Made by a program: the position numbers and the translations under genes
Notes under the pieces: generated by a model
What the model saw: only the letters and a program-made list of their open reading frames with translations
What the model was told of the DNA's origin: nothing
Databases searched by the model: none
Shown: piece after piece, positions 21,256-46,608 of the stretch
Layout: each line of letters starts with the position of its first letter
Position numbering within the stretch: the stretch's first letter is position 1
Assembly: GCA_963665665.1 (NCBI GenBank)
Contig: OY762428.1
Span: 4,992,001 to 5,056,000, forward strand
DNA length: 64,000 nt
Source of the DNA: Candidatus Kapaibacterium sp.
GTDB taxonomy: Bacteria > Bacteroidota > Ignavibacteria > Kapaibacteriales > UBA2268
Direction: 5' to 3'

Positions 21256-21307
21256 TAACAACAACTTATTTAATAAAAGAAATTAACAAACTAAGAAAGG
21301 CAAAACA

Positions 21308-21541: not shown

Positions 21542-21593
21542 TAACAACAACTTATTTAATAAAAGAAATTAACAAACTAAGAAAGGCAAAACA

Positions 21594-21827: not shown

Positions 21828-21879
21828 TAACAACAACTTATTTAATAAAAGAAATTAACAAACTAAGAAAGGCAAAACA

Positions 21880-22113: not shown

Positions 22114-22163
22114 TGAATAAGATGAAAAATAATTTGAAAATCAATAAAATAAAGGATTAAATC

Positions 22164-27803: not shown

Positions 27804-27900
27804 TTGATGCTCCTTTTGATTTTTTGCAAGTTAAGATTATTTCACCTTAAATCGCTGTTTTTTTTAAAGGAAGCCGTTCAGAATATCAGATTAAATATAT

Positions 27901-29557
27901 ATCCCTCCTTCCCAAGTTGCACTTGGGAAGGTCAATTTCTTGTAAAGTTATACTTTGGAATTATGAAGCACAGCTTCAATTGAAAATTGCATTACGAAGT
28001 GCAACTTCGTAATGAGGGGGGCAGAAAGTGGCCGAAGCAAAGTACCGAAGGTTTAAACTATTGCCGCCCTGTTCTTCTTCAAAGCCCTTCCCTTCGGGGG
28101 AGGGTTTGGGAGGGGTCAGAGGTATTGAGGTCTTGTTTGCACCTATTGCAGCAATGTTTAATTATAATGAACTCTTGGTCGAAGCAATTGCTGCCTTGTT
28201 CGAAGCTATTGAACCGATGTTCTAAGCCATTGCTGCCTTGGTCTAAGTTATTGCTGCCTTGGTCTAAGTTATTGCTGCCTTGGTCTAAGTTATTGCACTT
28301 ATGTTCTAAGCCATTGTTGCCTTGGTCGAAGTTATTGACCCCTTGGTCGAAGTCATTGATGCCTTGGTCGGAGTCATTGATGCCTTGTTCCAAATCGATG
28401 CACCGATGTTCTAAGTCATTGCTGCCTTGTTTTACTTCAAAGCCCTCTCCTTCGGGGAGGGTTTGGGAGGGGTCGAAGTTATTACACCGATGTTTTATTC
28501 AATTGCTGCCTTGTTCGAAGCTATTGCACCGATGTTTTATTCAATTGCTGTCTTGTTTCGAGGTAATGATTGCTTGTGTAGCGTTGAAATCCGAAATATT
28601 TAACGGATTGTATTATTTACAATACCTGAATAATAAAATATATCATAAGAATTAGTAAATATTTAAGTATTTGTAGTAAATATATTTATAGAATAATTAA
28701 ATAATCATATAGATTTACAATATTAATAATATAACTAATCAAATAAATAATTTATACAAGACATTAATCACTAAATAGTATTATTTATTATTCTATTTTT
28801 ATAAAATTAATTATGTATCCAAGTATATATTTAATTGTCCTAACAAATTAGCCATACTTATTAATTAATAGGTTAGAATTGATATTTAATAATTCATAAA
28901 ACGAAATTAATAAATTATACTGATAATTTAATTATATGTATAAAATATTTAGTTATTTATATAAAAAGTTTTGTTAGATAAACTATATCAAGGCTTGGAT
29001 ATATGATATATATTATTATAAATACTATATATTTAATATAAATAGTATAATATTTAATATTATAGATTAAATATTTAATTATAAGTTCCATCTATAGACT
29101 ATTCTCATCTCTACCTTCAGGATTTCAATGCCAAACAAGTGAGCAATGAAGCGGAAAAAGCAAGCAATGAGGCGGAACAAGCATACAGTAAGGCGAAACA
29201 AGACTTCAATGAAGCGGAACAAGACATCAGTAAGGCGAAATTTCATTACATTAAGGCGGGACAAGCAAGCAATAAGGCAGGACAAGGCAGTATTAAGCCC
29301 TGCAAACAAAGCGATTAGCCCCAACATCAGGGTTTTGATTAAAAACAGCATTGAAACAAGGAAATTATCCGGTTCATTGAAACCACAGGATAGGGAATTA
29401 AGGCCGGCGGCCTGTTCATTGGGGTGGAAGAACGGGGGGTAAGAGCCGGAGAAGGAGGTGTTATGTTGTCATTCTGACGGAGCTTGCGACTGAAGAATCC
29501 ATCTTCCTTTGCAGATTAGGTATTAAGAATGGATTCTTCTCTGGCGCTCAGAATGAC
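27901..29557. repeat. Composite dispersed element, copy A (inverted relative to 43614-45003)
   Basis: Four-hairpin block 27903-28021; REP-like hairpin 28079-28117; 21-bp array 28122-28583; AT-rich centre; opposite-facing 21-bp array 29130-29297; conserved segment to ~29460; GTCATTCTGA hairpin 29467-29557. Confidence 0.85.
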
Positions 29558-29634
29558 CTTCCAGCCTTATAATCGTCAAATTCAATAGACAGGTGCTCTA
29601 TCTCGTGGATAAATGTGCAAGGTGCGAAGGCAAA

Positions 29635-29672
29635 AAAAAACTCACCCGACAAAGAAATTATCGGATGAGTAA
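29635..29672 (-). terminator. Terminator of the OmpA-family gene
   Basis: ACTCACCCGA..TCGGATGAGT stem next to an A-run. Confidence 0.6.
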
Positions 29673-29691
29673 TTTATTTATGTTTAAGAGT

Positions 29692-31758
29692 CTATTCTTT
29701 TTCTTTAACAGGAGTTATCACTTCAATTCTTACAGTACGGCAGTAGAAACGACCTTCCGGAAGGTCATTGTCGTACAATAGCTGGCTCTCGCCAAGTCCT
29801 TCTACTCTGGCATTTGGTATTCCCAGCATACGTGAAGCCGACCTTGCACGTCTTTCGGATAACTTCTTATTATCGTCTTCGTCGCCAATTCTGTCAGAAT
29901 ATCCGTAAATAACAATAGATGCATCGCCGTTGAACCTGTTCTTAACAAAATTCAGAACCTTGCGGTGCTCCCTGCCAAGCTTGGATTTTCCATAATCAAA
30001 AAGAATAAGGCTGTAGTATTCGAATTCTTTGTCTGCTTTCCTTTCGAGCCGCTTCCTGTCTATAGTGATCTGCTCTACTGAAAGCCATTTTTTCTTAGTT
30101 GTTATCTTCTGCCCCAGGCTGTCGCTCACACTAAGAGTATAGCTGACATTTGCATAGTTTTTCGGGGCATTTGTATCTTTCTGATTTATCACCCAATCCA
30201 GTGAAGCCGGGATATTCCCATTGCCGCTGAACTCTTTCAGAACTTTTTTGCCCTGTATTGCCTGCAACTTCCATTCTTTGATTCCAAAAGCGGAATTAGC
30301 AACAGGATAGAATTTCAATCTGGTTGTTGACAGAATTCTAAGAGTATCAGTTGTCATAACAGGCTCTCCGAGAACATTCCCCCGGGAAACAATTTCCACA
30401 CGGCGGTTCTCGGCATCGGGGCCTTCCTCGTCGGATCGGGAAGCCTGACGCGGCAGGTTCCGTGCACTAATACGCATTCTTTTCTCATCAATTCCCCATA
30501 CATCCCGCAGGTAATCCCTGACGGACTCTGCCCTGGCTTTGGATAGTTCTTTATTGCCCTTTTCATTTCCGGAATTGGAATTACAACCAATCAGGGTAAT
30601 TCTTTCTTTAGGATTTTCATTAAGGCGCTTGCCGAAAATATTCAGAACCTGGTAATAGGTTTGTACTGCATCAAGATTCTGCAATTTCTTAAGATCAAAT
30701 TTTGCGGTATCTTTAGCATTTAGCCTGATATATCTGTCAGGAATATTTGAACTGTCCTCGGCAAAGAAAACGTAGTTCAGAAGAGGCCGCATATTCAGCG
30801 ATATAAAATCTTCTATCCTGATATTAAAGTTTTTATTTTCTTTACCGCTACTGTCAACCTTCACGGCATAGACAGACGCGTTCAGTTCAGGTGGCTTTAC
30901 CGGCTCCGGCAATTTTTCCGGATTCGGTGGATCGAGTGGCGGCGGTGGAGGAGGAGGGGGCGGCGGAGGTTGTTTGTATTTGAGTGACAATCCTGCACGA
31001 ATTGTATGGACACCCCATGTTTTACCACTAACAACCGGTGTAAACCAATAAGAATAGAATACCTCCGGGGCTATTAAAAAAGACCGCCTGCGATTCATCG
31101 GAAGTTCGTAACTTATTCCAACATTGAAAGCCAATTGCATGGCAGCATTTTCCAGATCGCCTGAAAAAACATTACGCACCCTTGTTGAATCAAGGAAAGT
31201 TCCCCTGTCAGAGGGATTAACAATTTCTTCTTTCTGGTCATAAGTTTTAGTCATTGGGAAACCGGCACGGACACTTGCATGGCCAAACAGATAATCAATT
31301 ATCCGGTAACCTGCTCCCAGTTCGAACCCGAGAGTGGACAGCCCTATATCCAGAGTATGCTCGAATTCACCCTGACGTGAAACTCCGTCAACCAAAACAG
31401 TTGTTTCTTCCACTTTACTTAGCAGGCCGTTATAAACAGAATAAGAAACCCTGCCGTTGATATGCCACTTGTAATCTACTGGATAATCAACCAAAGCTCC
31501 GATAGCAATTCCGGTTCCATCACCGGAAGTAAATGTAGGACAGCAATTCGGCACATTATCAAGTTTTTTGAAATCGGAAGCATGGAAATTCAGGTTATAG
31601 CCGCCAAATATTCCAAATCTTGGCTTTAACTCATTAGTATCGGCTTCCATCCCCTGATTATCCGCCGATACTAACCAATAAGGGCTTAGCCCGAAAAACA
31701 GAGCCAAAAGAAAAGTAAAAATATTTCTTTTTTGTGAACTGATAAAATCTCGATTCAA
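29692..31758 (-). CDS. OmpA-family outer-membrane protein: beta-barrel, poly-Pro linker, two OmpA_C-like domains
   Basis: Alternating beta-strands; PPPPPPPPPPP linker; LSKARAESVRDYL..ENRRVEI and ILFDYGKS..GYSDRIG..LSERRA..CRTVRIEV. Confidence 0.9.
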   Translation of the reverse strand: MNRDFISSQKRNIFTFLLALFFGLSPYWLVSADNQGMEADTNELKPRFGIFGGYNLNFHASDFKKLDNVPNCCPTFTSGDGTGIAIGALVDYPVDYKWHINGRVSYSVYNGLLSKVEETTVLVDGVSRQGEFEHTLDIGLSTLGFELGAGYRIIDYLFGHASVRAGFPMTKTYDQKEEIVNPSDRGTFLDSTRVRNVFSGDLENAAMQLAFNVGISYELPMNRRRSFLIAPEVFYSYWFTPVVSGKTWGVHTIRAGLSLKYKQPPPPPPPPPPPLDPPNPEKLPEPVKPPELNASVYAVKVDSSGKENKNFNIRIEDFISLNMRPLLNYVFFAEDSSNIPDRYIRLNAKDTAKFDLKKLQNLDAVQTYYQVLNIFGKRLNENPKERITLIGCNSNSGNEKGNKELSKARAESVRDYLRDVWGIDEKRMRISARNLPRQASRSDEEGPDAENRRVEIVSRGNVLGEPVMTTDTLRILSTTRLKFYPVANSAFGIKEWKLQAIQGKKVLKEFSGNGNIPASLDWVINQKDTNAPKNYANVSYTLSVSDSLGQKITTKKKWLSVEQITIDRKRLERKADKEFEYYSLILFDYGKSKLGREHRKVLNFVKNRFNGDASIVIYGYSDRIGDEDDNKKLSERRARSASRMLGIPNARVEGLGESQLLYDNDLPEGRFYCRTVRIEVITPVKEKE

Positions 31759-32096
31759 ATCATCCCCCTCGAATTTCGCGAAAATCGTTTCGGCTTATGC
31801 CGTATCAAATCAATTTACAAATGTAATCAATGCTAATTAAATCCAGAAATAATATTTAGTTCTGCAAGCTGTTAGTAGTAAAAAAAATCAAATTTACGGT
31901 TAATAATCATCAATTTATCCTATTTATCCAACAAATCAGCCATGGAGAACCGGAAATAAAAATGTTTGTTATTTCCGTTCCATTCCCGAAATCAATTGGC
32001 CTTTGTCCTATAAATCAGAAGCAGCAGGGATTTAAACATATAATATTTCTCTGAGAACTACTATGGCTTGATATTTCAATTTCGTGGAAATATATT

Positions 32097-32112
32097 TGGC
32101 AGGCATTTTGTA
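32097..32112 (+). promoter_or_regulatory. Sigma-54 promoter candidate
   Basis: TGGCAGGCATTTTGTA with -24/-12 spacing, ~75 bp upstream of ATG 32188. Confidence 0.4.
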
Positions 32113-32187
32113 TATTATATTTATGATTTTAGATTTTCATGAAAGATTATTTTTATTTAACAAAATAAATCATTAACAGGTATTGAA

Positions 32188-32763
32188 ATGACTGAAAAAA
32201 AATCAAATGTATTAAAAGCAGATGAAAATAATGACAACGAGCACATTATTAATCCGTTTCAGGACGAGTTCGATCCAGCTTCGGTTGTAAATAAAAATGT
32301 AATTGATAAAGAGCAGGCAGAAAGTTCGAATATAATTAGCGAGAGTTTAGAAGCTAAAAAAGATGAAGAAGAAATCGAAGAATTACTTTCAGCAGACGAG
32401 GAAGAAATAAAAAAGAATGTTTTCGAACCTGGAATTGGTACCGATGAAGATATCGTTGATGATGAGATGGAAATGAAGAAAAATCTTTTCAAGGATTTCC
32501 TTGCTGTTCCCAAGATCAGCGGTAAAACAGTAGGTATACCTCACTCCAACCTTATTCCTGAAGAAATACTAAAAAACAGGGGTAAGAAAATTGAAATTAA
32601 TGATGACCCGATTGTTGATGATGACGAACATAGCCGCACAACGATCATGATAAATAAAAATGCCGAAGGTGAAATTGAAAGTATCGAAGTTTATTGCGCT
32701 TGTGGTGAGCGAACAATGATAAAACTAAATTACGATAATGACGAAGAAACTGAAGAGGAATAA
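32188..32763 (+). CDS. Acidic hypothetical protein with a small C-terminal CxCG domain
   Basis: D/E-rich N-terminus; IESIEVYCACGERTMIKLNY. Confidence 0.75.
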   Translation: MTEKKSNVLKADENNDNEHIINPFQDEFDPASVVNKNVIDKEQAESSNIISESLEAKKDEEEIEELLSADEEEIKKNVFEPGIGTDEDIVDDEMEMKKNLFKDFLAVPKISGKTVGIPHSNLIPEEILKNRGKKIEINDDPIVDDDEHSRTTIMINKNAEGEIESIEVYCACGERTMIKLNYDNDEETEEE

Positions 32764-32765
32764 AA

Positions 32766-33047
32766 TTAATACTCGATCTGAGTGTGAAGGCCTATTTCCT
32801 CTAATACACCGCTAATTCTAAGGCAATCATTCATTTCACCGTCGAATACGCATGCTTTGCCTTTGGTGTGAACCTCCCATGTAAGGTTTTCTGCTTTATC
32901 CCGCCCGCAACCCACAGCTTTGATAATCTGTTCAATAACCTCATCAAAAGTGTGCCAGTCGTCGTTGAATAAAATAACCTTGGATGCCAGAGCCGTATCA
33001 TTCGGAGTTAATACTTCCGGTTCGGCAACAGACTGATTGTCTTCCAT
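32766..33047 (-). CDS. clpS: ATP-dependent Clp protease adaptor ClpS
   Basis: KVILFNDDWHTFDEVI..A..LTWEVH.KGKA.V; likely start ATG 33047. Confidence 0.9.
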   Translation of the reverse strand: MEDNQSVAEPEVLTPNDTALASKVILFNDDWHTFDEVIEQIIKAVGCGRDKAENLTWEVHTKGKACVFDGEMNDCLRISGVLEEIGLHTQIEY

Positions 33048-33521
33048 ATATATTGCGCTTATCATCTTATCCCAATGTAACTTTTTTATCCGAGCACAAT
33101 TAAATAAAAATCTCAAAAAAAATCAAGAAAATAATGTCGGTTTATGCGAATTGGCAATATTCCATGATCTGATAAATACGGGAATTGATTCCTTCCTTTT
33201 GATTAGGATGCCCCAAAATAAATCGAGACAGGATGATTGCAGGCTTACAGAACCCGCGACTGATTAATCCATCTTTTTCTTTATGATAGTTCATTAAGAA
33301 CAGACTTTTCGCTTCTTTCAGATTGGCATTGCTTATAATTATTTAAAGATATCTGAGATATTGTTTTTTTGCTGGTTAGCAAGGTTTGGATATAATCAAT
33401 AAAAAAACCGGGCAATATATATTTGAAGAATTGCCCGGAAAAACTAAAATTTGAAAATGATCCTGTTTTAATCATTTACTGGATAATCGTACCGATTCGT
33501 ATAAATGATAAGAATGATATA

Positions 33522-34292
33522 TCAAAAACCAATTATCTTTGATTCTAATGCAAAATACCTTTCAAGTTCATCTTTATAATTCGATGTCAACCTTTTGGTA
33601 AGAGCCATAGAGTTATGATTGAAACCACATAATTCGTGTGCCTGGTTGATAGCAGACTGCCTGAAATTTTCAATTGGCAAAACCTCGTGAATCAGGAATT
33701 TTTCTTTAGCTGTATCAACTTTTATTTCGCCCTGGTGGTACAGAAATGCATTAGCTTCACCCTGTCCCATAAATCTTGGTAAAAAGAAAGGTAGTGCCCC
33801 TGCAGGATGCATTCCATATTTGGAGTGAGGCAGGCAGTATTTCATGTCATCGGCAGCAAAGCGAAAGTCAAAGCTCAGGCTAAGCCCGAAGAAAGGCGTA
33901 ACAACTGTATCCTGAAGAGCAATGATTGTAATTTTCCTGAAATCAACCATTTTCAGGATAAAAGTTCTGAAAGTATTCATCTGGCGGGCCCGAATCAGTT
34001 TTTTCTCTGATTCATCCATACGGATTCCGCCATCATCTTCATTATTGAAGAATTTTGTCATGAAGTCATCATAAACCGTATTTCCGAAGGCATCATGGTT
34101 ATTCATAACCATAATAGCATCAATTACAGGATCCTTTTCAACCCAATTAATTAGTTCAATAAGGTTGCCGCCCTTTTCCAGATCGGAAATACTCGAAAAA
34201 AATAAATTTTTAAGTTCGATAAGTGCTATTTTGTTTTCTACGGAAAATGAAAGTTCATCATTTTCAAACCGGAATGTATCTGAATTTTCCAT
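33522..34292 (-). CDS. Crotonase/enoyl-CoA hydratase-fold protein, divergent
   Basis: KITIIAL..GLSLSFDFRFAA....Y.LP..KYGMHP.G...FFLPRFMG. Confidence 0.75.
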   Translation of the reverse strand: MENSDTFRFENDELSFSVENKIALIELKNLFFSSISDLEKGGNLIELINWVEKDPVIDAIMVMNNHDAFGNTVYDDFMTKFFNNEDDGGIRMDESEKKLIRARQMNTFRTFILKMVDFRKITIIALQDTVVTPFFGLSLSFDFRFAADDMKYCLPHSKYGMHPAGALPFFLPRFMGQGEANAFLYHQGEIKVDTAKEKFLIHEVLPIENFRQSAINQAHELCGFNHNSMALTKRLTSNYKDELERYFALESKIIGF

Positions 34293-34377
34293 AAATCACC
34301 TGACTAATTTTATTTAAAATATCCGGTAAATCTTTCTTTATTTTAACATTAAATAATATTAAAAGCAAGTAAAAAAT

Positions 34378-34403
34378 AAAAAAAACGGGGCCTGAGCCCC
34401 GTA
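34378..34403 (-). terminator. Terminator of the efflux operon
   Basis: ACGGGGC..GCCCCGT hairpin next to an A-run. Confidence 0.75.
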
Positions 34404-34406
34404 AAT

Positions 34407-37400: not shown

Positions 37401-37520
37401 CACGTCCGGCATCTGGTTCAGATTCATTCCGAAATAAGCAATACCGCCAAATATCAGAAATACCAGGATTATCATTGTTGTCATAACCGGCCGGTTTATT
37501 GACATTTTTGCAAGAAACAT
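34407..37520 (-). CDS. RND efflux permease (AcrB/AcrD/AcrF family)
   Basis: SINRPV; YPGAGP.EIE; two TM bundles; GIVVNNAILMLD..KLKPIMMST. Confidence 0.95.
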   Translation of the reverse strand: MFLAKMSINRPVMTTMIILVFLIFGGIAYFGMNLNQMPDVEIPYITIQTVYPGAGPKEIETQISKKIEDAVATVSEIEQLLSYSLDGASVVIIQFKMTKDVNVANQEVKDKVDAIINDLPTDAEKPIVEKVDFRAFPIMQVVLSGDIDPRELYDIADKTLKDRFSQIQGVARVDATGGQEREIQVVMNNRVAFENSISLPQMLQLLAYQNRDIPGGYFQIGDQEYTVRLDGEFPDTKAIEELRVPTAFGPKKIKQFATVVDGGKKIRQRAVYFNVKNKFRDENVVRLGIVKSTDGNVVKVAEAVRATLPDIEKTLPAGCKLEIISDNSVFTRSTVDDTMSNVLLGVIFTSIVLLLFLANFRSTLIVALSMPTSIISTFMLMSAAGLTMNMMTLMGLSVSIGVLVANSVVVLENIFRHRNMGKMPKEAAYIGTKEVTVAVLASTMTNLVVFLPIANMSSLVGQFMKELALTAVFATIFSIFMSFTLTPMLASLILPKTAKVGRIGAAFDAFYRKWDDFYRKILTVSLKNWIISLGILIVTGIILVGSLMIYGPHLGFEFIPASDNGKLMVEVELPQGYNLKETSNSIKEIEEKLSKHEEVIDILTTLGKKSDMDIGTNMALININLVDAKEREIGLGKLIDVFTEDLAKIPNMNITVKRADNEGPGQNPVEFFILGQDLEEVEVLKEQTMEAIKDVPGLINLDNSSRAGKPEITVYPKRDKLSESGLTVFDIAMTLRSAIEGIESTKYRELGNEYDIIVTLDDESTNTPEKIGNIPLVGPGGTYRLSQVADVKFTTGFTKIIHRDKYIAIQITGGNAEGVPIGDVTAAIDKKMADIEFPPGYRYEWGGNTKMMNEMILDMGFAFFIAVILTYMLLAAILESFFQPIIILSTLPLAFIGAVTSLYYTNIALGITALMAIIMLIGIVVNNAILMLDYTNQLVRDEGMKMKDALIQACPTKLKPIMMSTLALILGMLPMALGIGDAGAEMRQPMGVVSIGGLVSSTLLTLVVIPASVYIFDLLWNMIKRMLGIGRKTQMKI

Positions 37521-37559
37521 TTTTCTCGTCCTTAGTTTCTAAATTAATTAATCATTCAA

Positions 37560-38609
37560 TTATTCTACAACCGAGATTTTCTTACCTTCTTCAACCAGGG
37601 CCTGCCCCTGTGTGATAATCATCTCGCTGCCGTCTAATCCGTCGGTTATTTCAATTTCAACGCCACTTTCCTGGCCTGTTTTAACATACTGTTTAACAGC
37701 ATTTCCTTTTAAATCCACATATACAAATTTGCCTTTTTCATCTTTGTTAATCAGATGTCTCTTCAGAACAAATGTTTCAGGATTTGTATAAGTATTGATA
37801 TAAATATCAGTCATAACCCCGGATTTCAACATTCTTGAAGGATTCGGGAAGAGAATTTCCACGCCGAAGGCACGTTTATCTTTGTCCATTGTAAGGGTTA
37901 CTTCCGAAACCCTGCCGCGCAGGGTATCCTTGTCAATCAGAATAAATGAACTCATTCCATTCTTTATAAAAGCAGCTTCTTCTTCTGATGCCCATATTTT
38001 CGCTTTCATTTGTCCAAGCTGGGCAACAGTGAACAAAGGCTTACCCTGTCCTACAATATCGCCAACTTTGTGTTTCATTTCAACAACAGTACCGCTAATC
38101 GGAGATTCAACATTCAATAACTGATTTAGTTGTTCATAATTTCTTTTATTAACGAGATACTGTGTTTCTGCCTGATCAAAATTCTGTTGTGAAGTTTCGC
38201 CCGCTTCAAGAAGAGCTTTCATCCTGTTGTAAGTTTTCTCTGCAATATCAAGGGCTGCTTTTGCCTGATCAAATTGCAATGCCGGATTATCCGTAGGGAA
38301 CTCAATTACAACCTGGTCTTCTTTTACGAAGTCGCCGACTTTTGCATTGATTTTTGCGATCTTATCATTTACCATACCCATAACAGGCGTCTGACGAATT
38401 CCTGAAAGCTGTGCATAGAAAGTCATGGATTTGACAAACTCTTTTTTAACAGGTTTTTCCACTTTCACCGGAACGCCGTCTTCGTTCCTGATCTGTTCCA
38501 TACTTCTTGCTGTTTCCTGCTTTTCCTCGGAGCAGGCAGAAAAAACTATGGCAGCCATAACGGCTAAGGATAAAAGGAAGTTCTTTTGTTTAGTTAATGT
38601 TGTTCTCAT
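37560..38609 (-). CDS. RND membrane fusion (periplasmic adaptor) lipoprotein
   Basis: Lipobox FSAC; SPISGTV..VGD lipoyl halves around a coiled hairpin. Confidence 0.93.
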   Translation of the reverse strand: MRTTLTKQKNFLLSLAVMAAIVFSACSEEKQETARSMEQIRNEDGVPVKVEKPVKKEFVKSMTFYAQLSGIRQTPVMGMVNDKIAKINAKVGDFVKEDQVVIEFPTDNPALQFDQAKAALDIAEKTYNRMKALLEAGETSQQNFDQAETQYLVNKRNYEQLNQLLNVESPISGTVVEMKHKVGDIVGQGKPLFTVAQLGQMKAKIWASEEEAAFIKNGMSSFILIDKDTLRGRVSEVTLTMDKDKRAFGVEILFPNPSRMLKSGVMTDIYINTYTNPETFVLKRHLINKDEKGKFVYVDLKGNAVKQYVKTGQESGVEIEITDGLDGSEMIITQGQALVEEGKKISVVE

Positions 38610-38633
38610 GATATTTATTACTCCTGATATAAA

Positions 38634-40136
38634 TTATTTATTTTCGTTATTGTAAAGGCCTAATTTAATATATTTCGAATCTACTTTACCGAGAAGCATA
38701 TTAAGGTCTGATTGGGCTTTAAGGTAGTCATATACAGCCTGCAGCCTGTTGGTTTTGGCCTGCCTCAGAGCCATGTCGGCATTCTGGATTTCCAGTTGAT
38801 TCCCAGTGCCTTCCTTGTAGCGGATTTCGGATAGTTCGTAAGCCCTTTGCGCTACGGTAACGGTTCTTTCCCTGGCTTCGATGGTGTTTTTAACCTTTTC
38901 AAGGTTAAGAATAGCCATTCTCACCTGCATTTTAATTGCGTCTTTAAGCTGAAATAGTTGCTCATCTGTCTGCATGACGGCAATTTGTTTCTGCTGAACT
39001 TTCCTGGAAGTACGCAAACCGTTAAACAAGTTGATGGAAAATGAAAGCCCGACAACCGAAGAGTTATAATTCATGAAATTCAAGTCATCGGACTGGCCGC
39101 CAAGGGAATAATTTCCAAAAGCTGCTATGGTAGGATAATAGTCCGATTCATCAATTTGGATGAATGCTTCGTCGAGTTCTCTTTTCATTCTCAAAGTTGA
39201 AAGGTCATAATTATTGGTTAGAGCCTCTGTTATTGACTGGTCGGAATCAGGAACTGATCCACCATTATATTCGAGCGTTCCTTCTATGTTTATTTCTTGC
39301 TTTGGGTCAATACCCATGGTCATTTTCAGTCCGTCAAGGGCATTTTTGTATGCATTTTCTACCTCTATTAACTGAGGGCGAATATTTTCAACCTGAACTT
39401 CAGCCTGCAGCCTGTCAAATTCCGCAACAAGCCCCTGGTCGTAAAGAGCCTTAACATTATTATAGTTATTCCTGGCGTTTTCGAAGCTCTCACTTGTGAT
39501 TTTCACAAATTCACGTGTCAGCAAGACACCGAAAAAAGCATTTTCCACAGAATTGACAATATTGACAACCTTTGCTTTTAGTTGTTCCTGAGCTGTTTCA
39601 TAGTAAACCTGTGAAGCCCCTATTCCCTGGAAAACTGCTGAATTGAACAAAACCTGAGTAACCTGAGCAGTCGCCTCGTAAGAATTGGACTGAACCATAG
39701 AAAGTTCTGATAGTCCCATTGGCAGGAACTTCGAGGAATCACGCGGCAGCACGCCCTCGTCGAAAAGAATTGAATAGCTGGCATTTGTAAGCATAGCATT
39801 GAAATCCGGGAAGAAAATAATCGGCTTCTTCAGGAAATGGCTGAAATTTGCAGTTACATCCAATGATGGATATGCATAACCATATGCTTCGCTTATAGCA
39901 GCATCAGCCTTTTCAACTTCCAAACGTGCAATTTTAGTGTCAGGATTGTTTTTCAGAGCTGTTTCTATTGCTTTGTCGATTGTAAAAACCTGCTGGGAAT
40001 GCAGAGGCAATGACAACGCAACTAATCCTGCCATAATAAAGGCAGCAAACAGCTTTGTTTTTAGGTTCTTAATTTTCATCTTCGATCCGTGGATAAATAT
40101 TTCACAATTATTATTTATTTGCAATTTAAACATCAA
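38634..40136 (-). CDS. TolC-family outer membrane efflux protein (start may be ~40079)
   Basis: AL.NN repeats; YPSL/YYPTI; RY.EG....LE...A. Confidence 0.93.
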   Translation of the reverse strand: MMFKLQINNNCEIFIHGSKMKIKNLKTKLFAAFIMAGLVALSLPLHSQQVFTIDKAIETALKNNPDTKIARLEVEKADAAISEAYGYAYPSLDVTANFSHFLKKPIIFFPDFNAMLTNASYSILFDEGVLPRDSSKFLPMGLSELSMVQSNSYEATAQVTQVLFNSAVFQGIGASQVYYETAQEQLKAKVVNIVNSVENAFFGVLLTREFVKITSESFENARNNYNNVKALYDQGLVAEFDRLQAEVQVENIRPQLIEVENAYKNALDGLKMTMGIDPKQEINIEGTLEYNGGSVPDSDQSITEALTNNYDLSTLRMKRELDEAFIQIDESDYYPTIAAFGNYSLGGQSDDLNFMNYNSSVVGLSFSINLFNGLRTSRKVQQKQIAVMQTDEQLFQLKDAIKMQVRMAILNLEKVKNTIEARERTVTVAQRAYELSEIRYKEGTGNQLEIQNADMALRQAKTNRLQAVYDYLKAQSDLNMLLGKVDSKYIKLGLYNNENK

Positions 40137-40150
40137 ATGTTAAGATAAAG

Positions 40151-40762
40151 TTAACCATTGAATACTTTGTTAATCTCTTCTTTAGCTTCTTTTGTTGCTG
40201 CACCGTCAATCAGTACTTCAAATATCTGGTCAATAATTTCTTTTTTTCCAAGATTCATCGGGATTGCAACATCTGGTTTCATCATATTTGTAACAGTAAA
40301 GTAGTGCATATAATATATCACATCAATATTTATACATTCTTTAATAATATTTTTTTCCTTTCCGATTTCCAGAAAACGTCGAAAATCCGATTGGAGCCGT
40401 TCCACCCTGAATTTCTGCATTTTGTCCCAAACTTCGGGAAGGTTCTCCTGAAGATCATCAAAAAATACATCTGAAAGGTGATCAACTATTTTGGGAATCA
40501 TATCCCATATCTCTTTTAATTTTGGAATAAATGTATCGGTGGAACAATCTGAAAGGTCATCCAAAGCTTCGCGAATCAAATCTTTTTGTACGAATACATA
40601 TTTGTCTATCAGGGCATCGAGAATTTCTTTCTTAGATTTGAATGTCTGGTACAAAGTTCTCTTGCTTATTCCCGCTTTTTTTGCTAAACTGTCAGTTGTT
40701 ACTCTTGTATAACCGAACTTTGACATTTCCTCGCGTGCGATTTTTAATATCCTGTCTCTCAT
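40151..40762 (-). CDS. TetR/AcrR family regulator
   Basis: RIL..A.E.M..FGY..VT.D.LAKKAGISKRTLY..FKSK. Confidence 0.93.
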   Translation of the reverse strand: MRDRILKIAREEMSKFGYTRVTTDSLAKKAGISKRTLYQTFKSKKEILDALIDKYVFVQKDLIREALDDLSDCSTDTFIPKLKEIWDMIPKIVDHLSDVFFDDLQENLPEVWDKMQKFRVERLQSDFRRFLEIGKEKNIIKECINIDVIYYMHYFTVTNMMKPDVAIPMNLGKKEIIDQIFEVLIDGAATKEAKEEINKVFNG

Positions 40763-40781
40763 TTTTCCTATGGTACTCAAT

Positions 40782-40796
40782 AAACTAAAATAGTTT
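40782..40796. promoter_or_regulatory. Candidate TetR operator
   Basis: Palindrome AAACTA-AAA-TAGTTT just upstream of the TetR gene. Confidence 0.5.
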
Positions 40797-40993
40797 TCTC
40801 AGTTACAAACATACTGCTATTACGAAAAAAGTCCAAAAATATTATCCAGATTTTTGTTCATTTTGATATTTTTTTTGATGATTTTTTCATAATTATTATA
40901 ATAATATTCCCCGAATAATTTTTTTCACGCCATTGATACGAAAAAAACTTATTTTTGTTTATATTATTTTTACAAAAATTTTACGTGTGAATT

Positions 40994-43240
40994 ATGTCTG
41001 ATATCGTAAAAGATGAACTCTACTCAGAAATCGAAGTGACCAAAGAAACAGCGATCGAGGTTGGGCTAACAGAAGAAGAATACGACAAAGTGCTTGAAAT
41101 AGTCGGCAGAACACCAACTTACACCGAAATAGGTGTTTACGGTGTTATGTGGAGCGAGCACTGCTCATACAAAAATTCAATAAAGCAATTAAAAACTTTA
41201 CCGAGGTCCGGTGGCAGGCTGCTCGTGGAAGCAGGAGAAGAAAATGCCGGGCTGGTTGATATTGGCGACGGATATGCCTGTGCATTTAAAATCGAAAGCC
41301 ATAACCACCCTTCGGCTATTGAACCATTTCAGGGCGCTGCAACAGGTGTAGGGGGAATCTTAAGAGATATATTCACAATGGGAGCCAGGCCGATTGCGGC
41401 TCTTAACTCATTACGTTTCGGCGAACTTGATAATGAAAGAACAAAGTTCCTGCTCCGTGGTGTAGTTGAAGGTATAAGCCATTACGGTAATTCATTCGGT
41501 GTTCCTACAGTTGGCGGTGAAGTTTACTTCCAGCATTGCTATCATGATAATCCCCTGGTTAATGCTATGGCTGTTGGTATTGTGCCGGTTGATAAAACAG
41601 CATCTGCCACTGCTGACGGCCCCGGGAACCCTGTAATGATAGTAGGCAGCAGAACCGGACGCGACGGAATCCATGGCGCATCATTGCTGGCTTCACGTGA
41701 GTTTGACGAGAAAACCGAAGATATGCGGCCCACAGTTCAGGTTGGCGATCCGTTCGCAGAAAAAATGCTTCTCGAAGCAACCCTGGAATTAATTGAAGCC
41801 GGCGTGGTTGTTGGTATTCAGGATATGGGTGCCGCCGGTATTTCATGTTCCACTTCCGAGATGAGTGCGAGAATTGACAAAATCGGTATGGAAGTCGATC
41901 TTGATCTTGTTCCTTTGCGTGAAGATGATATGACTGCCTATGAAATCATGCTTTCGGAATCGCAGGAAAGAATGCTTGCTGTTATTGATAAAGATAAAGT
42001 AGATGAAGCTATTAAAATTTGTGAAAAATGGGATGTTCCCATGAAACAAATCGGACATGTAACTGGTGACGGCTTTATTCACGTTCACAGAAACGGCAGG
42101 AAAGTTTGCAAGCTGAATGCTGAATCCCTCGTTCTTGGAGGAGGAGCCCCGGTTTACGATCCACCGGCAAAAGAACCTGAATATTTAAAGAAAACAAGAG
42201 CTTTCGATTTAAACTCAATCGATAAATCACAGGATTTGAAAGAAGTATTCACAAAGCTTATTTCGTCCCCGACAATTGCATCAAAAAAATGGGTTTACGA
42301 GCAGTATGATTCTCAGGTAAGAACCAACACAGTTACAATTAAAGGCGATGCCGCTATTATGAGGGTAAAAGAACTTCCCGGCAAAGGACTTGCTGTTTGT
42401 ACGGACTGTAACAGCCGTTTCAGCTATCTGAATCCATATCGCGGAGGTTTATCAGCCGTTATGGAATCGGCAAGAAATGTTGTTTGTGTAGGAGCGGAGC
42501 CTGTTGCCATCACTAATTGCCTGAATTTCGGCAACCCTTATGACCCGGAAATTTACTGGCAGTTCAAGGAAGTTATCCGCGGTATGGGCGATGCATGCCG
42601 AGCAATGGACACACCTGTTACCGGCGGTAATGTAAGCTTTCACAATGAATCACAAAACCTTGCTGTGTTCCCGACACCCACAATAGGTATGCTTGGCGTT
42701 ATTGAAGATATGAACAAAACAATGAGCCAAGAATTTAAAAATGAGGGCGATCATATTTACCTTATCGGTAATAACAGGCAGGAACTTGGCGGTTCGGAAT
42801 ACCTTAAAATCATTCACGGTACTGTAAACGGTGAAGCCCCGGAAATCAATATTGATGAAGAGATCAGGCTCCACAAAGTAACACTTAATGCAATTAAAAA
42901 CGGACTTATAAATTCAGCCCATGATTGCAGCGAAGGTGGCATTGCCATAACACTGGCAGAAAAATCTATTGCATCAAAGGGCCTCGGCGCTGATGTTGAA
43001 CTGCCTGCCGGAGCTTCTGTTGACAGTCTGTTCGGCGAATCACAATCCAGGATAATCGTAACGGTCAGCCCGGATAAAGCAGGTGAGTTTGAAGCAATTT
43101 GCAAAGATGGCCGGGTTGAATTATTTAAACTTGGATATGTAATTAAAGACGAATTGAAAATAAAAGATGCTTTTGATATTAAAGTATCAGAGATAAATTC
43201 AATTTATGAAAATGTAATTCCCGGTATTATGGGTGAATAA
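40994..43240 (+). CDS. purL: Phosphoribosylformylglycinamidine synthase subunit PurL (small type)
   Basis: MWSEHCSYK, KIESHNHPS, GAATGVGGILRD, QDMGAAG, SESQERM, GGNVSF.N. Confidence 0.98.
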   Translation: MSDIVKDELYSEIEVTKETAIEVGLTEEEYDKVLEIVGRTPTYTEIGVYGVMWSEHCSYKNSIKQLKTLPRSGGRLLVEAGEENAGLVDIGDGYACAFKIESHNHPSAIEPFQGAATGVGGILRDIFTMGARPIAALNSLRFGELDNERTKFLLRGVVEGISHYGNSFGVPTVGGEVYFQHCYHDNPLVNAMAVGIVPVDKTASATADGPGNPVMIVGSRTGRDGIHGASLLASREFDEKTEDMRPTVQVGDPFAEKMLLEATLELIEAGVVVGIQDMGAAGISCSTSEMSARIDKIGMEVDLDLVPLREDDMTAYEIMLSESQERMLAVIDKDKVDEAIKICEKWDVPMKQIGHVTGDGFIHVHRNGRKVCKLNAESLVLGGGAPVYDPPAKEPEYLKKTRAFDLNSIDKSQDLKEVFTKLISSPTIASKKWVYEQYDSQVRTNTVTIKGDAAIMRVKELPGKGLAVCTDCNSRFSYLNPYRGGLSAVMESARNVVCVGAEPVAITNCLNFGNPYDPEIYWQFKEVIRGMGDACRAMDTPVTGGNVSFHNESQNLAVFPTPTIGMLGVIEDMNKTMSQEFKNEGDHIYLIGNNRQELGGSEYLKIIHGTVNGEAPEINIDEEIRLHKVTLNAIKNGLINSAHDCSEGGIAITLAEKSIASKGLGADVELPAGASVDSLFGESQSRIIVTVSPDKAGEFEAICKDGRVELFKLGYVIKDELKIKDAFDIKVSEINSIYENVIPGIMGE

Positions 43241-43439
43241 TATTATTTATTTATGGTGATGTCTCATTTATCAAATTTTTTGAGATTTATCCTTTTGAGT
43301 CTGCCTATAAAAGCCGGCTTTTACAATTAGGAAATGACATTTAAAAACTGATCGTCGGGATCTCCGTATCCCGGCGAACAGTGAAAGCTTGGATTTCCCA
43401 ATCCTTTTTACTTTCGTATTGGCCAGCCGAAAAAGCATC

Positions 43440-43580
43440 GGAATTATTTAAAAAAGCTCCGTAGGAGCGACATAATCTTTTGCCAATGTCGCCCCGACGG
43501 GGGTGTCCGAAGGCCGGGGGTGGATTTCCGGAAAATTCCCCTCGTTGAGGGGTGGCGAGCACAGCGAGACGGGGTGGATT
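43440..43580. repeat. Cluster of REP-like palindromes
   Basis: CCGTAGGAGCGACAT..ATGTCGCCCCGACGGGG and TTCCCCTCGTTGAGGGGTGGC..GACGGGGTG hairpins. Confidence 0.6.
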
Positions 43581-43613
43581 CTTTTTCCGATTGAAGTTAT
43601 TATAGTTGGCGGG

Positions 43614-45003
43614 TGTCATCCTGAGCGAAGCGAAGGATCCATTCTTTATGCATCAGCTACTAAAGAAGATGGATTCTTCTGTCGCTTCGCTCCGTCAGAA
43701 TGACAACATAATCGCCTCATGCTTTTGCTCTGTTTACCCGTTCTTCCACCCCAATGAACAGGACGTCGGCCTTAATTCCCTATCCTGTGGTTTCAATGAA
43801 TCGGATAATTTCCTAACTTCAATGCTGTTTTGAACCAGAATCCTGATGTTTGGGCTAAATGCTTTGTTGGCAGAGCTTTAAACTGCCTTGGCCGGTGGTA
43901 TTGAACTACTGTTTGGCCTTAATGTAGTGAAATTTGGCCTCATTCCACGCTTGTTTGACCTTATCCCACGCTTGTTTGACCTTATCCCACGCTTGTTTGA
44001 CCTTATCCCACGCTTGTTTGACCTTATCCCACGCTTGTTTGACTTTATCCCACGCTTGTTTGACTTTATTCCACGCTTGTTTGACTTTATCCCACGCTTG
44101 TTTGACTTTATTCCACGCTTGTTTGACTTTATCCCACGCTTGTTTGACTTTATCCCACGCTTGTTTGACTTTATTCCACGCTTGTTTGACTTTATTCCAC
44201 GCTTGTTTGGCCTCATCCCACGCTTGTTTGACTTTATCCCACGCTTGTTTGACTTCATCCCACGCTTGTTTGACATTATTGAACATGTTCTTTGCCTCCG
44301 AACAAGAGTTCAATGCCTTCAAACAAGGCAGCAATATCATCAAACATCGCTGCAATAGTGTCGACCAAGAGTTCATTATCATCAAACATCGCTGCAATAG
44401 CTTCAAACAAGAGTTCATTATCATCAAACATCGGTGCATCGATTTGGAACAAGGCAGCAATGAAGCCAAACATTGCTGCAATAGCTTCAAACAAGAGTTC
44501 ATTATCTTCAAACAAGGCGGCAATGACTCCGAACAAGGCATCAATAACTCCGAACAAGGAAACAATAGAATCAAACATCGGTGCTTTGCTTTCGACCCTT
44601 CCTACCTCCCCCCGGCCACATCCTTCGGAAGAAGGGGGAGTTAATTCTATGATATTTAATTTCTTATCCCCTCCTCGGGGAGGAGGGGAATACAGGGGAG
44701 GTTTTCTTTCTTTGCTTCCGACCAGGGCATTATTATCCACAAGCTAAAGCACGTGGCTATCGAATTTGACGATGGTAAGGCTGGGATCTCATTCTGAGCG
44801 CCAGCGAAGAATCCATTCCTAATACATTATCTGGCGAACAAAGATGGATTCTTTTTCGGGCAACCACAAGGGTTGCCCCTACGATGCCCCCTCATTACGA
44901 ACTTGTACTTCGTAATGCAATTTTCATTTGAAGTTATGCTTCTCTATTTCAAAGTAAAACTTTGTGGGAATAATCCTTCCCAGGTACAACCTGGGAAGGA
45001 GAG
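43614..45003. repeat. Composite dispersed element, copy B
   Basis: GTCATCCTGAGC hairpin 43614-43705; conserved segment; 16 x 21-bp units (43939-44274); central palindrome GAACATGTTC (44281-44290); 14 x 21-bp opposite-facing units (44296-44589); further hairpins; four-hairpin block 44886-45003 is the reverse complement of 27903-28021. Confidence 0.9.
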
Positions 45004-45085
45004 AAATCAGAATGGAATTTAACAGTACTCGTCCGGCTTCTCACGAACCTGTTCCGCCATTTCAATCTTTATTTTTTAATAAATA

Positions 45086-46596: not shown

Positions 46597-46608
46597 TTTT
46601 GTTCTTTT

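Follow-up and report, generated by a model that had tools for sequence, protein, structure and literature searches.

The window analysed in this work, a stretch of 64,000 nucleotides from Candidatus Kapaibacterium sp., contains three copies of a repeat element. Copy 1 is full and occupies positions 27899-29640 on the plus strand; copy 2, related to it by reverse-complement alignment, is also full and runs from 45007 to 43615 on the minus strand; and copy 3 is a partial element at 1-470 on the minus strand, cut by the window edge. All three copies are intergenic, and the full ones occupy the second and third largest gaps among the 40 listed ORFs (1861 and 1845 bp, with a median gap of 125 bp). 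Copy 1 is directly adjoined by an IS3-family element (26678-27830) and copy 2 is neighboured by a truncated transposase gene (45411-45716); the 14 kb between the two full copies carry housekeeping-type genes.

In each full copy a four-hairpin domain forms the leader, after which come a core, some 170 conserved bases as a tail and a palindromic hairpin of 90 bp. The core is built of two arms of 21-bp units in opposed orientation, and the dyad between them is placed at a unit boundary. The original prediction of two full copies and one partial copy with shared hairpin domains, opposed 21-bp arrays, a conserved segment and a further hairpin was recovered in this layout, with the arrays supported by TRF and pattern searches. 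It had also described the full copies as colinear reverse complements. Their kinship is clear from reverse-complement alignments of the leader (27899-28020 and 45007-44887; 81% identity over 122 bp), of the stretches 29127-29557 and 44046-43615 (75.5% over 433 bp) and of the terminal hairpin module of copy 1, hereafter module H, with an extra partial module of this type in copy 2 (29493-29638 and 44853-44707; 80%), but strict module order is not kept and module content differs between the copies. The predicted "unique" segment of about 170 bp is well conserved: copies 1 and 2 agree at 153 of 182 columns (84% over about 180 bp), including identical runs of 34 and 26 bases. Region 1-470 matches both other copies, as had been proposed: positions 286-461 are 79% identical to 44553-44728 of copy 2 in direct orientation, and the region also aligns with the copy 1 array and its hairpin, although a four-hairpin block is absent from it within the window.

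Copy 1 begins with the four-hairpin domain (27899-28022, plus strand), in which a closing stem surrounds four hairpins, the first being terminator-like (27907-27931); its MFE is -45.0 versus -25.9 ± 3.3 in shuffles. The left arm (28037-28578, plus strand), delimited by TRF, pattern search and PWM, is composed of 21-bp units with the consensus CTTGTTCGAAGCTATTGCTGC, for which TRF reported period 21, 12.2 copies, 75% matches and 1% indels at 28174-28429. Two GC hairpin blocks are embedded in this arm, at 28074-28116 (43 bp) and 28432-28473 (42 bp), and carry the hairpin motif at 28098-28115 and 28455-28472; this motif, a type of short GC-rich imperfect palindrome in intergenic DNA, occurs 5 times versus 0.03 expected. 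The AT-rich centre that follows (28579-29118, 540 bp, 15% GC, no strand assigned) was resolved by lag and self-alignment into two mirrored 21-bp arrays. Its lag-21 match is 0.497 versus 0.369 ± 0.020 in shuffles, the top three lags being 21, 63 and 42, and its rows stay in register, with left-half units starting with AAATAT, right-half units finishing with ATATTT, a dyad near 28856 and a self reverse-complement alignment spanning 28544-29168. The right arm (29119-29310, plus strand; TRF, pattern search and PWM) contains about 9 units in the opposite orientation (...GCAATGAGGCGGAACAAG), with period 21 reported by TRF at 29144-29286. The conserved non-repeat tail (29311-29467, plus strand), defined by alignment to copy 2, had no protein match in two frames and no Rfam match at E <= 1. 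Module H (29468-29640, plus strand) consists of the 90-bp palindromic hairpin GTCATTCTGA...TCAGAATGAC (29468-29557; MFE -34.9 versus -20.9 ± 3.2 in shuffles) and a tail of about 80 bp that is 80% identical to 44853-44707, so that copy 1 extends to about 29640 rather than ending at 29557, where it had initially been placed.

All strand-specific parts of copy 2 and copy 3 lie on the minus strand. The four-hairpin domain of copy 2 (44885-45007) is located directly downstream of a peptidase S51 gene fragment. The left flank of the array contains an extra partial module H with hairpin and tail (44707-44855), recognised by motif matches and by its 80% identity to 29493-29638. A purine/pyrimidine double hairpin module occupies about 44601-44706 (79% identity to 286-461). 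The left arm (44291-44600; TRF, pattern search and PWM) has about 14 units arranged in a 42-bp super-period, which TRF reported as period 42 at 44317-44514. The dyad centre at 44281-44290, read from the sequence and without strand, is the perfect palindrome GAACATGTTC at a unit boundary. The right arm (43930-44280; TRF and pattern search) comprises 16 near-identical units TCAAACAAGCGTGGGATAAAG, with period 21, 16.0 copies, 94% matches, 0 indels and a TRF score of 579 at 43945-44279. It is followed by the conserved non-repeat tail (43705-43929), aligned to that of copy 1, and by the module H hairpin (43615-43704; MFE -42.6 versus -21.0 ± 3.4 in shuffles). Between the two full copies, the extra hairpin-plus-tail module and the purine/pyrimidine double hairpin are present only in copy 2, whereas the two GC hairpin blocks in the left array and the 540-bp AT-rich centre are present only in copy 1. 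Copy 3 starts with an array of 84-bp super-units found by TRF (1-345), each consisting of one unit split by a 42-bp GC hairpin block and one plain unit (1-291: period 84, 3.5 copies, 99% matches). Its purine/pyrimidine double hairpin module and one further in-phase unit occupy 346-470.

The 21-bp period had been predicted to be maintained between copies, and the observed register is far stricter than that claim, as it persists within the AT-rich centre, past the switch in orientation and across the hairpin modules. A degenerate four-unit pattern gave 22 matches in the window versus 0.00 expected (100 shuffles), and three AACAAG motifs at 21-bp spacing gave 17 matches versus 0 expected. In copy 1, PWM matches of the left arm from 28132 to 28552 all have coordinate phase 13, and so do the minus-strand matches of the right arm at 29161 and 29203, which lie 609 bp (29 x 21) past the last left-arm unit. 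Because the 540-bp "spacer" is itself two mirrored 21-bp arrays, about 1.27 kb of this copy follow one 21-bp grid with the dyad at a unit boundary. All PWM matches in both arms flanking the dyad of copy 2 have coordinate phase 18, and the array cores that end at 44579 and 44726, on either side of its purine/pyrimidine module, are 147 bp (7 x 21) apart at 17 modulo 21. The cores of copy 3 at 39, 123, 207, 291 and 312 are all 18 modulo 21, and its purine/pyrimidine module likewise separates units by 147 bp (312 to 459). Among the embedded modules checked on window DNA, four of five are whole multiples of 21 bp, namely the second GC block of copy 1 (42 bp), the purine/pyrimidine modules of copies 2 and 3 (147 bp) and the super-unit of copy 3 (84 bp); the exception is the GC hairpin block at 28074-28116, which measures 43 bp and not 42. 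The same quantisation was read from ORF translations of other copies in 23 of 23 modules, where 12/12 GC-hairpin modules are bracketed at 21 residues and 11/11 purine/pyrimidine modules at 49 or 56 residues, all 0 modulo 7, a count that does not amount to 23 independent events because the quantised modules may descend from few ancestral insertions. The register is common to three unrelated unit types, both orientations and two kinds of hairpin module. The 31 units diverge by about 30% through substitutions, essentially without indels, and keep five invariant bases (T3 G4 T6 and T16 G17). The two arms are alike in the core motif only and the remainder of the unit has diverged, which argues for selection on the core.

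At the level of folding, the hairpin domains reached z-scores of -4.4 to -7.8. In the four-hairpin domain copies 1 and 2 keep all 35 pairs; one change is compensatory and two are wobble-compatible, and the copies differ at 4 of 70 paired versus 21 of 54 unpaired columns. The opposed arms are complementary as well, with a cofold gain of -55.3 for copy 1 (-28.1 ± 5.8 in shuffles) and -63.7 for copy 2 (-28.5 ± 5.9). Rfam had no match at the gathering score in the window and none at E <= 1 in 27800-29750 or 43200-45150.

Copies outside the window were recognised from ORF translations alone and not from DNA. The frame-A translation returned nine matches, five of them on a contig of 5,458,198 bp. 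The PurL of the window and ORF P0013 are on that same 5.46-Mb contig, which places six further ORF translations on the window's own contig. Six other contigs (51-502 kb) each carry such ORFs, contributing six translations. None of these 12 ORFs comes from the window itself, and the highest identity was 79%. The distribution is narrow, with just 17 matches among 1.84 billion protein representatives, of which about 5 are true relatives. A landmark unit read as LFQIDAP recurs in copies 1 and 2, P0003 and P0009, which shows whole-array copying. The possibility that only the copies of the window exist and derive from one segmental duplication does not hold, since more copies lie elsewhere in the genome and on other contigs; judged by these translations, the family is not a local duplication. 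Altogether, the copies very probably represent a lineage-restricted, non-coding, modular intergenic repeat family, neither a gene nor a one-off duplication, and the original description of a non-coding multi-copy family with no transposase inside was borne out.

The original prediction could not assign the element to a known class; the family can, however, be placed near the minisatellite-bearing MITE-like repeats, which on our best reading are its nearest known kind. The closest among them, compared by description, is BrickBuilt of Porphyromonas gingivalis, a minisatellite carried by a MITE-like element, which its authors read as a MITE with promoter activity and not as a binding platform (PMC4596501). 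The two share an FCB-group host, a spacer-free array of units of about 20 nt between a conserved leader and tail, many copies (19 in BrickBuilt) that are always intergenic and confined to one species group, and a variable unit number; both also have predicted long stem-loops, flanking terminators, no Rfam match and hypothetical genes called on them (PMC4596501). The likeness is one of description, and the unit of BrickBuilt is 23 nt instead of 21 (PMC4596501). In the same description, BrickBuilt has a single array in one orientation, unlike the two mirrored arms found here, and indels of up to 6%, unlike the strict grid; it is portrayed without embedded hairpin modules or an AT-rich mirrored centre, both of which are present here, and with 12-nt IS5-family-like terminal inverted repeats and some target duplications, neither of which was found in the Kapaibacterium elements (PMC4596501). 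For the latter, the best ungapped terminal match was 9 in copy 1 and 8 in copy 2, in comparison with a mean of 6.9 and a largest value of 10 in shuffles, and module H, although a palindrome itself, is just one 90-bp module of the composite. No direct repeat is common to the flanks of the full copies; on its left, copy 1 meets the IS3 end, and the original junction there has therefore been lost. No Y1 (RAYT-type) transposase domain occurs among the 43 ORFs scanned in the window, and no plasmid or phage similarity was found. The suggestion that the composite is one mobile unit was not sustained, as its outer ends have no inverted repeat above chance and module content varies between copies. We infer that whole elements may have been duplicated or recombined to new places and then gained and lost units locally, with no transposition of the composite.

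Other known systems resemble the family in part. The BOX elements of Streptococcus pneumoniae and the BIME/REP elements of enterobacteria are modular intergenic mosaics with few module types, variable copy number and GC-rich palindromic hairpins; they often occupy gene 3' ends or the space where convergent genes meet, and have been proposed to affect mRNA stability and termination and to bind proteins (IHF, gyrase). In BIMEs the orientation of REPs switches from one unit to the next, with fixed linker motifs, BOX elements contain one run of boxB, and REPs are tied to RAYT transposases. The present elements share with them the intergenic module mosaic with GC-rich palindromes, but a 21-bp grid and a two-arm dyad are not known from those systems, and here orientation changes only once, at the dyad. 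Plasmid partition and iteron sites, such as parC of pSK41 with its 20-bp repeats, parC of R1 with two sets of 11-bp repeats around a core, and the iterons of P1 and F, are phased arrays of about 20 bp coated cooperatively by a small DNA-binding protein. Some of them keep the non-repeat DNA between sets in phase and some have oppositely facing blocks, and they are single per replicon and adjoin their own par or rep genes. Given many chromosomal copies and no par or rep gene nearby, the likeness is one of design only, and membership is not claimed. A further locus (L031) in a Candidatus Kapaibacterium MAG, at 4957-5500, consists of two abutting intergenic 21-bp arrays, the second repeating the core of the first in reverse complement; once the cores are aligned, both arms share one register (336 = 16 x 21). 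Its arms are also complementary (cofold gain -57.2 versus -23.7 ± 5.7 in shuffles), but it differs in being without hairpin modules, leader and tail, and its 61% unit likeness to the window does not show homology, as the selecting pattern forces 7 of the 21 positions.

Several explanations other than a DNA-level platform were weighed. That the arrays are translated heptad-repeat genes or their remnants, with units encoding amphipathic ALFEAIA in the left arm and KQAWDKV in the right arm, is suggested by a 21-bp period equal to seven codons, by the left arm of copy 2, which is open in frame A with a gene-like codon score of 0.29, by sub-threshold coiled-coil matches from the right-arm frame, by a KQEIQTM array within a real coiled-coil ORF of Anoxybacteroides (L052), and by the ORFs predicted on other copies, whose modules preserve the heptad register. 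However, frame A has 6 stops in the left arm of copy 1, the three window arms contain 9, 19 and 3 stops in frame B, and the sole frame open in all three (C) scores -0.55 and -0.58 for codons, which is non-coding by our references (genes 0.28 ± 0.10, wrong frames -0.43 ± 0.23). Codon periodicity is absent over the 31 units (1.21, 1.14 and 1.14 bits), with invariant bases at wobble positions. Among 51 internal heptads from the 12 ORFs of other copies, position 5 is just L/M and position 6 just F/V, and position 2 (I 39, N 8, D 2, S 1, K 1) varies among one-base neighbours and not within a hydrophobic set; what would be a core position switches between I and N. The supposed ORFs contain GC hairpins, the AT-rich centre has 14-25 stops per frame at the same period, and copy 1 has no convincing start. 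Array translations had no Pfam or NCBIfam match above cut-off, and five window ORFs with an ATG start have no counterpart entry in the protein collection. A gene remnant with one conserved frame, the alternative named in the original prediction, is not what the arrays show, as no single frame is conserved; a coding origin is very improbable, and the arrays are not translated. It is just as improbable that an integrated plasmid or phage has its replication origin or partition site here, or the chromosome its origin or terminus, with mirrored iterons around an AT-rich unwinding region. The mirrored arrays of about 20 bp around the 15%-GC centre of copy 1, one DnaA-box-like 9-mer per full copy, in the tail of module H, and the divergence of gene strands near 40.9 kb would fit this reading. 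At least three copies in 64 kb, with more elsewhere, argue strongly against it; besides, copy 2 has no AT-rich centre, the DnaA-box-like sites are not clustered in the arrays, rep, par, dnaA and phage-type domains occur in 0 of 43 ORFs scanned, the intervening 14 kb are housekeeping in type, plasmid or phage similarity is lacking, and GC skew tracks gene strand only.

An element acting as RNA or single-stranded DNA, for example one transcribed from the upstream gene through a long 3' extension, with arms that would pair as a ladder hairpin and influence transcript stability or termination or serve as a sponge, is improbable on balance, if less so than the preceding two. It is favoured by arm complementarity that far exceeds the shuffled level in copies 1 and 2 as well as the MAG locus, by the folding of the 681-nt arm region of copy 2 (-200.7 versus -175.3 ± 6.3; other strand -160.9 versus -129.0 ± 6.5), by the conserved four-hairpin stems with the compatible changes noted above, and by the position of the copy 2 four-hairpin domain after the stop of the upstream gene and in the same direction. 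It leaves the 21-nt quantisation of modules unexplained because the branch hairpins of a ladder need no fixed length, and CTTGGTC is present in about half of the copy 1 left-arm units while the right arm has no instance of the complement, GACCAAG. Hairpin domains fold alike on both strands (-45.0/-45.8, -41.7/-41.0, -34.9/-33.3 and -42.6/-41.3), so that the transcribed strand cannot be inferred from them, and the elements show neither an excess of FCB-type or sigma-70 promoters nor an Rfam match. A stronger contender, which we still consider rather unlikely, is a selfish or neutral minisatellite-bearing MITE-like repeat, in which a small element captured a 21-bp tandem repeat and multiplied around the genome with no gain to the host, and grid, dyad and module sizes are inherited accidents. 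The modular build of leader, array and tail, the multi-copy, intergenic (3/3 in the window) and narrow distribution, the spurious ORFs called by annotation pipelines, as described for BrickBuilt (PMC4596501), the IS elements adjoining both full copies, the variable module content and the shared LFQIDAP-type landmark units all agree with this. Against it, neither terminal inverted repeats nor, in the flanks, a target duplication were found for the composite, with the caveat of the copy 1 junction lost to IS3; about 30% divergence has accumulated among 31 units with essentially no indels and five invariant bases; the register is held across three unit types, the orientation change and both hairpin-module kinds; and the arms resemble each other in the core motif only.

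A phased protein-binding platform is the reading that fits the lattice best, and we tentatively propose that the grid and the mirrored arms serve cooperative protein binding on DNA. As a putative model, the element would act as duplex DNA in which a short bipartite motif recurs every two helical turns and presents the same helix face along hundreds of base pairs. A sequence-specific protein would bind cooperatively and form two opposed filaments that meet at the dyad, and length changes that break the register would be selected against. The flanking palindromic hairpins may be REP-like and act as terminators or insulators toward neighbouring convergent genes. No binding protein is encoded beside the copies (43 ORFs scanned), and the PWM had 4 matches outside the copies versus 5.6 expected, hence no sign of a regulon of single dispersed sites in the window. 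The mirrored arms also weigh against the platform in being equally compatible with a long ladder hairpin of RNA or single-stranded DNA. Taken as a whole, a non-coding repeat family on a 21-bp lattice with a proposed role as a protein platform is the best explanation, to which we assign a probability of about 0.5. It is a more speculative and unlikely extension that these are new chromosomal nucleoprotein sites, dyad-symmetric 21-bp-lattice platforms in many copies, coated by protein in opposed filaments, with a chromatin-organising or insulator function and a design common to Kapabacteria-like FCB lineages; in build they would recall a plasmid centromere, while their role would be chromosomal and multi-copy.

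Even if the family is selfish, it shows how strictly a minisatellite register can be kept through hairpin insertions and an orientation change, explains spurious "hypothetical proteins" on such repeats in public annotations, and points out places where long repeats draw in IS elements and disrupt assemblies made from short reads. A functional grid would mean a single motif kept in perfect helical phase over hundreds of base pairs, with copies that differ in units, centre and modules as built-in controls. The elements would then be a ready natural substrate with which to look for a nucleoid or insulator protein of this poorly studied FCB lineage.

The elements of this window are best read as a non-coding modular repeat family (probability about 0.85). 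Copy 1 occupies 27899-29640 on the plus strand and copy 2 occupies 45007-43615 on the minus strand, and their parts comprise a four-hairpin leader, a left arm of 21-bp units, a centre, a right arm, a tail of ~170 bp and module H, a 90-bp palindromic hairpin with its own tail. The 21-bp arrays and the kinship of the two regions were borne out: TRF placed period-21 arrays at 28174-28429 (12.2 copies), 29144-29286, 43945-44279 (16.0 copies, 94% matches, no indels) and 44319-44567, a degenerate four-unit pattern occurred 22 times in the window versus 0.00 in shuffles, and copies 1 and 2 aligned as reverse-complement relatives over three stretches. Identity reached 81% in the leader (122 bp), 75.5% across right arm, tail and hairpin (433 bp) and 80% in the module H tail, while 153 of 182 columns of the non-repeat tail were identical, with longest identical runs of 34 and 26 bases. 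The third copy predicted at 1-470 is a partial one, oriented as copy 2, in which TRF reported an 84-bp repeat (1-291). Of the claimed colinearity, the reverse-complement relationship stood and the full module order did not: copy 2 carries an additional partial module H and a purine/pyrimidine double hairpin, and copy 1 has two GC hairpin blocks in its left arm as well as an AT-rich centre. The module H hairpin also has a fourth, weak relative (67%, 81 bp) at 33233-33313, in the gap after the ClpS gene.

The arrays were laid out in rows of 21 and scored with a matrix derived from 31 units of the left arms. Every plus-strand unit in the left arm of copy 1 begins at coordinate phase 13, and the minus-strand units of its right arm, 609 = 29 x 21 bp away, have phase 13 too. 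Both arms of copy 2 keep phase 18 and join at the palindrome GAACATGTTC (44281-44290). The 540-bp stretch between the arms of copy 1 (15% GC) is no mere spacer; it is a second, nested mirrored array pair, whose dyad lies near 28856. At lag 21 the stretch matches itself at 0.497 versus 0.369 ± 0.020, its top three lags are 21, 63 and 42, and AAATAT starts the rows of the left half as ATATTT ends those of the right half. The inserted modules follow the same spacing. The GC hairpin blocks of copy 1 measure 43 and 42 bp, respectively, the 84-bp super-unit repeated in copy 3 combines a split unit with a hairpin and one plain unit, and the cores flanking the purine/pyrimidine module lie 147 = 7 x 21 bp apart in copies 2 and 3. 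According to ORF translations of other copies, all 12 GC-hairpin modules sit between heptad anchors 21 residues apart, and for all 11 purine/pyrimidine modules the bracketing distance is 49 or 56 residues. Since an open frame requires multiples of 3 nt only, it is the 21-nt grid that accounts for 23/23 modules falling at 0 mod 7, although shared descent makes these fewer than 23 independent events. Across three unit types, two module types and one dyad, the register is guarded against changes in length, and a short core is the sole sequence that the two arms keep in common.

Translated remnants of a heptad-repeat gene, an alternative raised with the original prediction, are very unlikely to account for the arrays. 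Stops were counted in frames anchored to the unit register for the three window arms and for two array loci from other genomes, L031 and L111. Frame A, the ALFEAIA reading of the left arm, contains 6 stops in copy 1 and none in copy 2, copy 3 or L031, with 8 in L111; frame B contains 9, 19, 3, 15 and 0, and frame C 0, 0, 0, 3 and 12, in the same order. Frame C, stop-free in all three window arms, has codon scores of -0.55 and -0.58, which are those of a wrong frame (genes 0.28 ± 0.10, wrong frames -0.43 ± 0.23). The strongest point for coding is the score of frame A in copy 2 (0.29), a frame that six stops interrupt in copy 1. Across 31 units, conservation shows no periodicity of three bases (1.21, 1.14 and 1.14 bits), and in each frame some of the invariant bases T3, G4, T6, T16 and G17 fall at wobble positions. 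Twelve ORFs of other copies supplied 51 internal heptads, in which position 5 is limited to L or M and position 6 to F or V; the residues at position 2 are I (39), N (8), D (2), S (1) and K (1). These residue sets are the coding products of WTG, KTY and AWT, and a hydrophobic core would not tolerate them. The AT-rich arrays have the same period, yet contain 14-25 stops per frame. The KQAWDKV frame of the right arm gave only sub-threshold coiled-coil noise against Pfam and NCBIfam, and the five ATG-started ORFs of the window are absent from the protein collection. No gene-like frame is conserved, and selection on the unit acts on bases, not codons. A truly coding 21-bp array was encountered in Anoxybacteroides voinovskiense (L052, 4929-5408), where it encodes seven KQEIQTM heptads within an otherwise ordinary coiled-coil ORF of 159 residues. 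Look-alike arrays of period 21 can thus be genes, and the case for the window rests on the frame, codon and conservation tests.

The family is dispersed in its own genome and narrow in range, as indicated by same-genome ORFs and a protein profile search. The frame A translation of copy 2 matched nine predicted proteins, five of them on the window's own contig of 5,458,198 bp, which also carries the window PurL and P0013, a predicted protein of 471 residues in which hairpins and units form about six super-units in tandem. Of 12 such ORFs checked, none maps to the window (top identity 79%), and those of the same genome represent about 3.5 kb of extra element sequence, a figure taken from translations and not a locus count. 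Six further ORFs were located on contigs other than this one, 51 to 502 kb in length. The copies of the window are hence not the only ones left by a single segmental duplication, as more occur on the same contig and on others. HMMER returned only 17 matches among 1.84 billion protein representatives, of which about five are true relatives and the others are different heptad arrays; the right arm and tail in two frames had no match in the protein collection.

Species-representative genomes, a set that does not include the window's own genome, gave no match to an exact 20-mer from the most conserved block. The degenerate four-unit pattern found at least 113 stretches there, mostly unrelated 21-bp tandem repeats. 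Look-alikes among the matches listed are L031, L049, L098 and L111, for which homology is not claimed because the pattern fixes 7 of 21 positions. When the three copies were compared by BLAST with the 113 listed loci, only arrays were matched (L031, L111, L006, L052, L023 and L091), never the hairpins, leader or tail. In L031, a locus of a Kapaibacterium MAG, two 21-bp arrays with reverse-complement cores abut; its arms are complementary (gain -57.2 versus -23.7 ± 5.7) and, by manual count, in a single register when core-aligned (336 = 16 x 21). It shares the design and is not a proven relative, as one third of each unit is dictated by the pattern used for the scan. BLAST detected an inverted partner array at one of 79 listed loci (L077), and TRF found that 12 of 112 listed loci with period-21 arrays carry two arrays less than 700 bp apart. 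Ten listed double-array loci were tested besides L031, with L036 left out: the arrays are inverted in L077 only (z -4.6), direct relatives in L023, L076, L092 and L069, and gave nothing in the remaining loci. The L077 pair (2977-3258, Calothrix MAG) consists of abutting inverted 21-bp arrays of heptamer-like subunits. Two array families, with units like TTTGTTGCATCGGCTTGCACC and TGTGTTGTGAACGAATGAACT, are common to different Nostoc genomes (L024, L029, L030, L044, L056, L057, L070, L087 and L100; L005, L010, L040, L059 and L112). No description of mirrored 21-bp arrays turned up in the literature searched.

The window is chromosomal DNA of the FCB group and encodes T9SS sorting domains. The full copies fill inter-ORF gaps of 1861 and 1845 bp (median gap 125 bp), and the 14 kb separating them hold OmpA-family, ClpS, RND efflux, TetR and PurL genes. 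Copy 1 adjoins a two-ORF IS3-family element (26678-27830). Beside copy 2 (45086-45716) lies a truncated DUF4372 transposase N-terminus fused to a truncated peptidase S51 gene, whose start it overlaps in a different frame; the end of this truncated IS does not resemble module H. Gaps rich in repeats may be prone to insertion. A Bacteroidetes-type promoter consensus (TTTG, gap, TANNTTTG) was seen just upstream of the TetR-family gene (40806-40837, minus strand) and of an M16 peptidase gene (46570-46601, plus strand). Two other repeats of the window were recorded. Six near-identical tandem 286-bp units (20450-22379), each with a 77-residue ORF of hydrophobic N-terminus and C-terminal WEEEPEPILD, are followed by a diverged seventh copy (71 residues) and lie upstream of a hybrid histidine kinase gene on the opposite strand. 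A 1.19-kb intergenic gap holds an unrelated third 21-bp array (CCGAGCGTTCCCCCGTGCCTT; 13118-13353; 11.2 copies, 92% matches, no indels), in which five of six frames are open and one reverse frame has two stops; the ATG-started ORF over it (13075-13503) is absent from the protein collection.

The leader folds far better than shuffles on the element strand (z -5.8 and -4.9) and on the other strand (-7.8 and -5.8). Both copies preserve all 35 pairs, one of them through a compensatory change, and they differ at 4 of 70 paired versus 21 of 54 unpaired columns (Fisher p = 7e-6), a contrast biased in favour of the structure because it was predicted from the same two sequences. An assignment of the transcribed strand from wobble pairs was rejected because the two strands fold equally well, which also gives no choice between hairpin action in RNA or DNA. 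A ladder of RNA or single-stranded DNA is possible, if rather improbable, and leaves the quantised modules unexplained. Rfam had no match, the tRNA scan found none, and sigma-70 and terminator scans stayed at shuffle level. The FCB promoter consensus matched five times (4.0 expected), never within the elements. An origin or partition site is most improbable. An oriC was rejected: DnaA-box-like 9-mers number 35 in the window versus 21.9 ± 4.6 expected, with none in the arrays. GC skew was uninformative, and plasmids and phages gave no match in distant-mode blastn. One such 9-mer occurs in the module H tail of both copies (29604-29612, one mismatch; 44733-44741, perfect). Any resemblance of the core to a parS half-site, LytTR 9+12 sites, Fur boxes or IHF sites would extend to a few bases in each case.

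The main rival, which we consider somewhat unlikely, is a selfish element like BrickBuilt of Porphyromonas gingivalis, with the grid merely inherited. As reported, BrickBuilt is a species-limited 23-nt minisatellite with leader and tail in 19 intergenic copies, with long predicted stem-loops, no Rfam match, spurious ORF calls, IS5-like terminal inverted repeats, a single array orientation and indels of up to 6% (PMC4596501). It is the closest relative in kind of the window elements, sharing the minisatellite flanked by leader and tail, intergenic copies, limited range, stem-loops, absence from Rfam and spurious ORFs (PMC4596501). In contrast to BrickBuilt, the test for terminal inverted repeats at the outer ends of the window elements failed, and these elements add mirrored arms, a nested AT-rich centre and a strict grid; they are a variant of the kind, not a member. 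Our tentative preference is for a binding platform acting on duplex DNA. The simplest agent needing both a short motif and exact two-turn spacing would be a protein whose molecules bind one face of the DNA cooperatively. The dyad would then set two such assemblies in opposition, and the flanking palindromes may serve as REP-like terminators or insulators between convergent genes.
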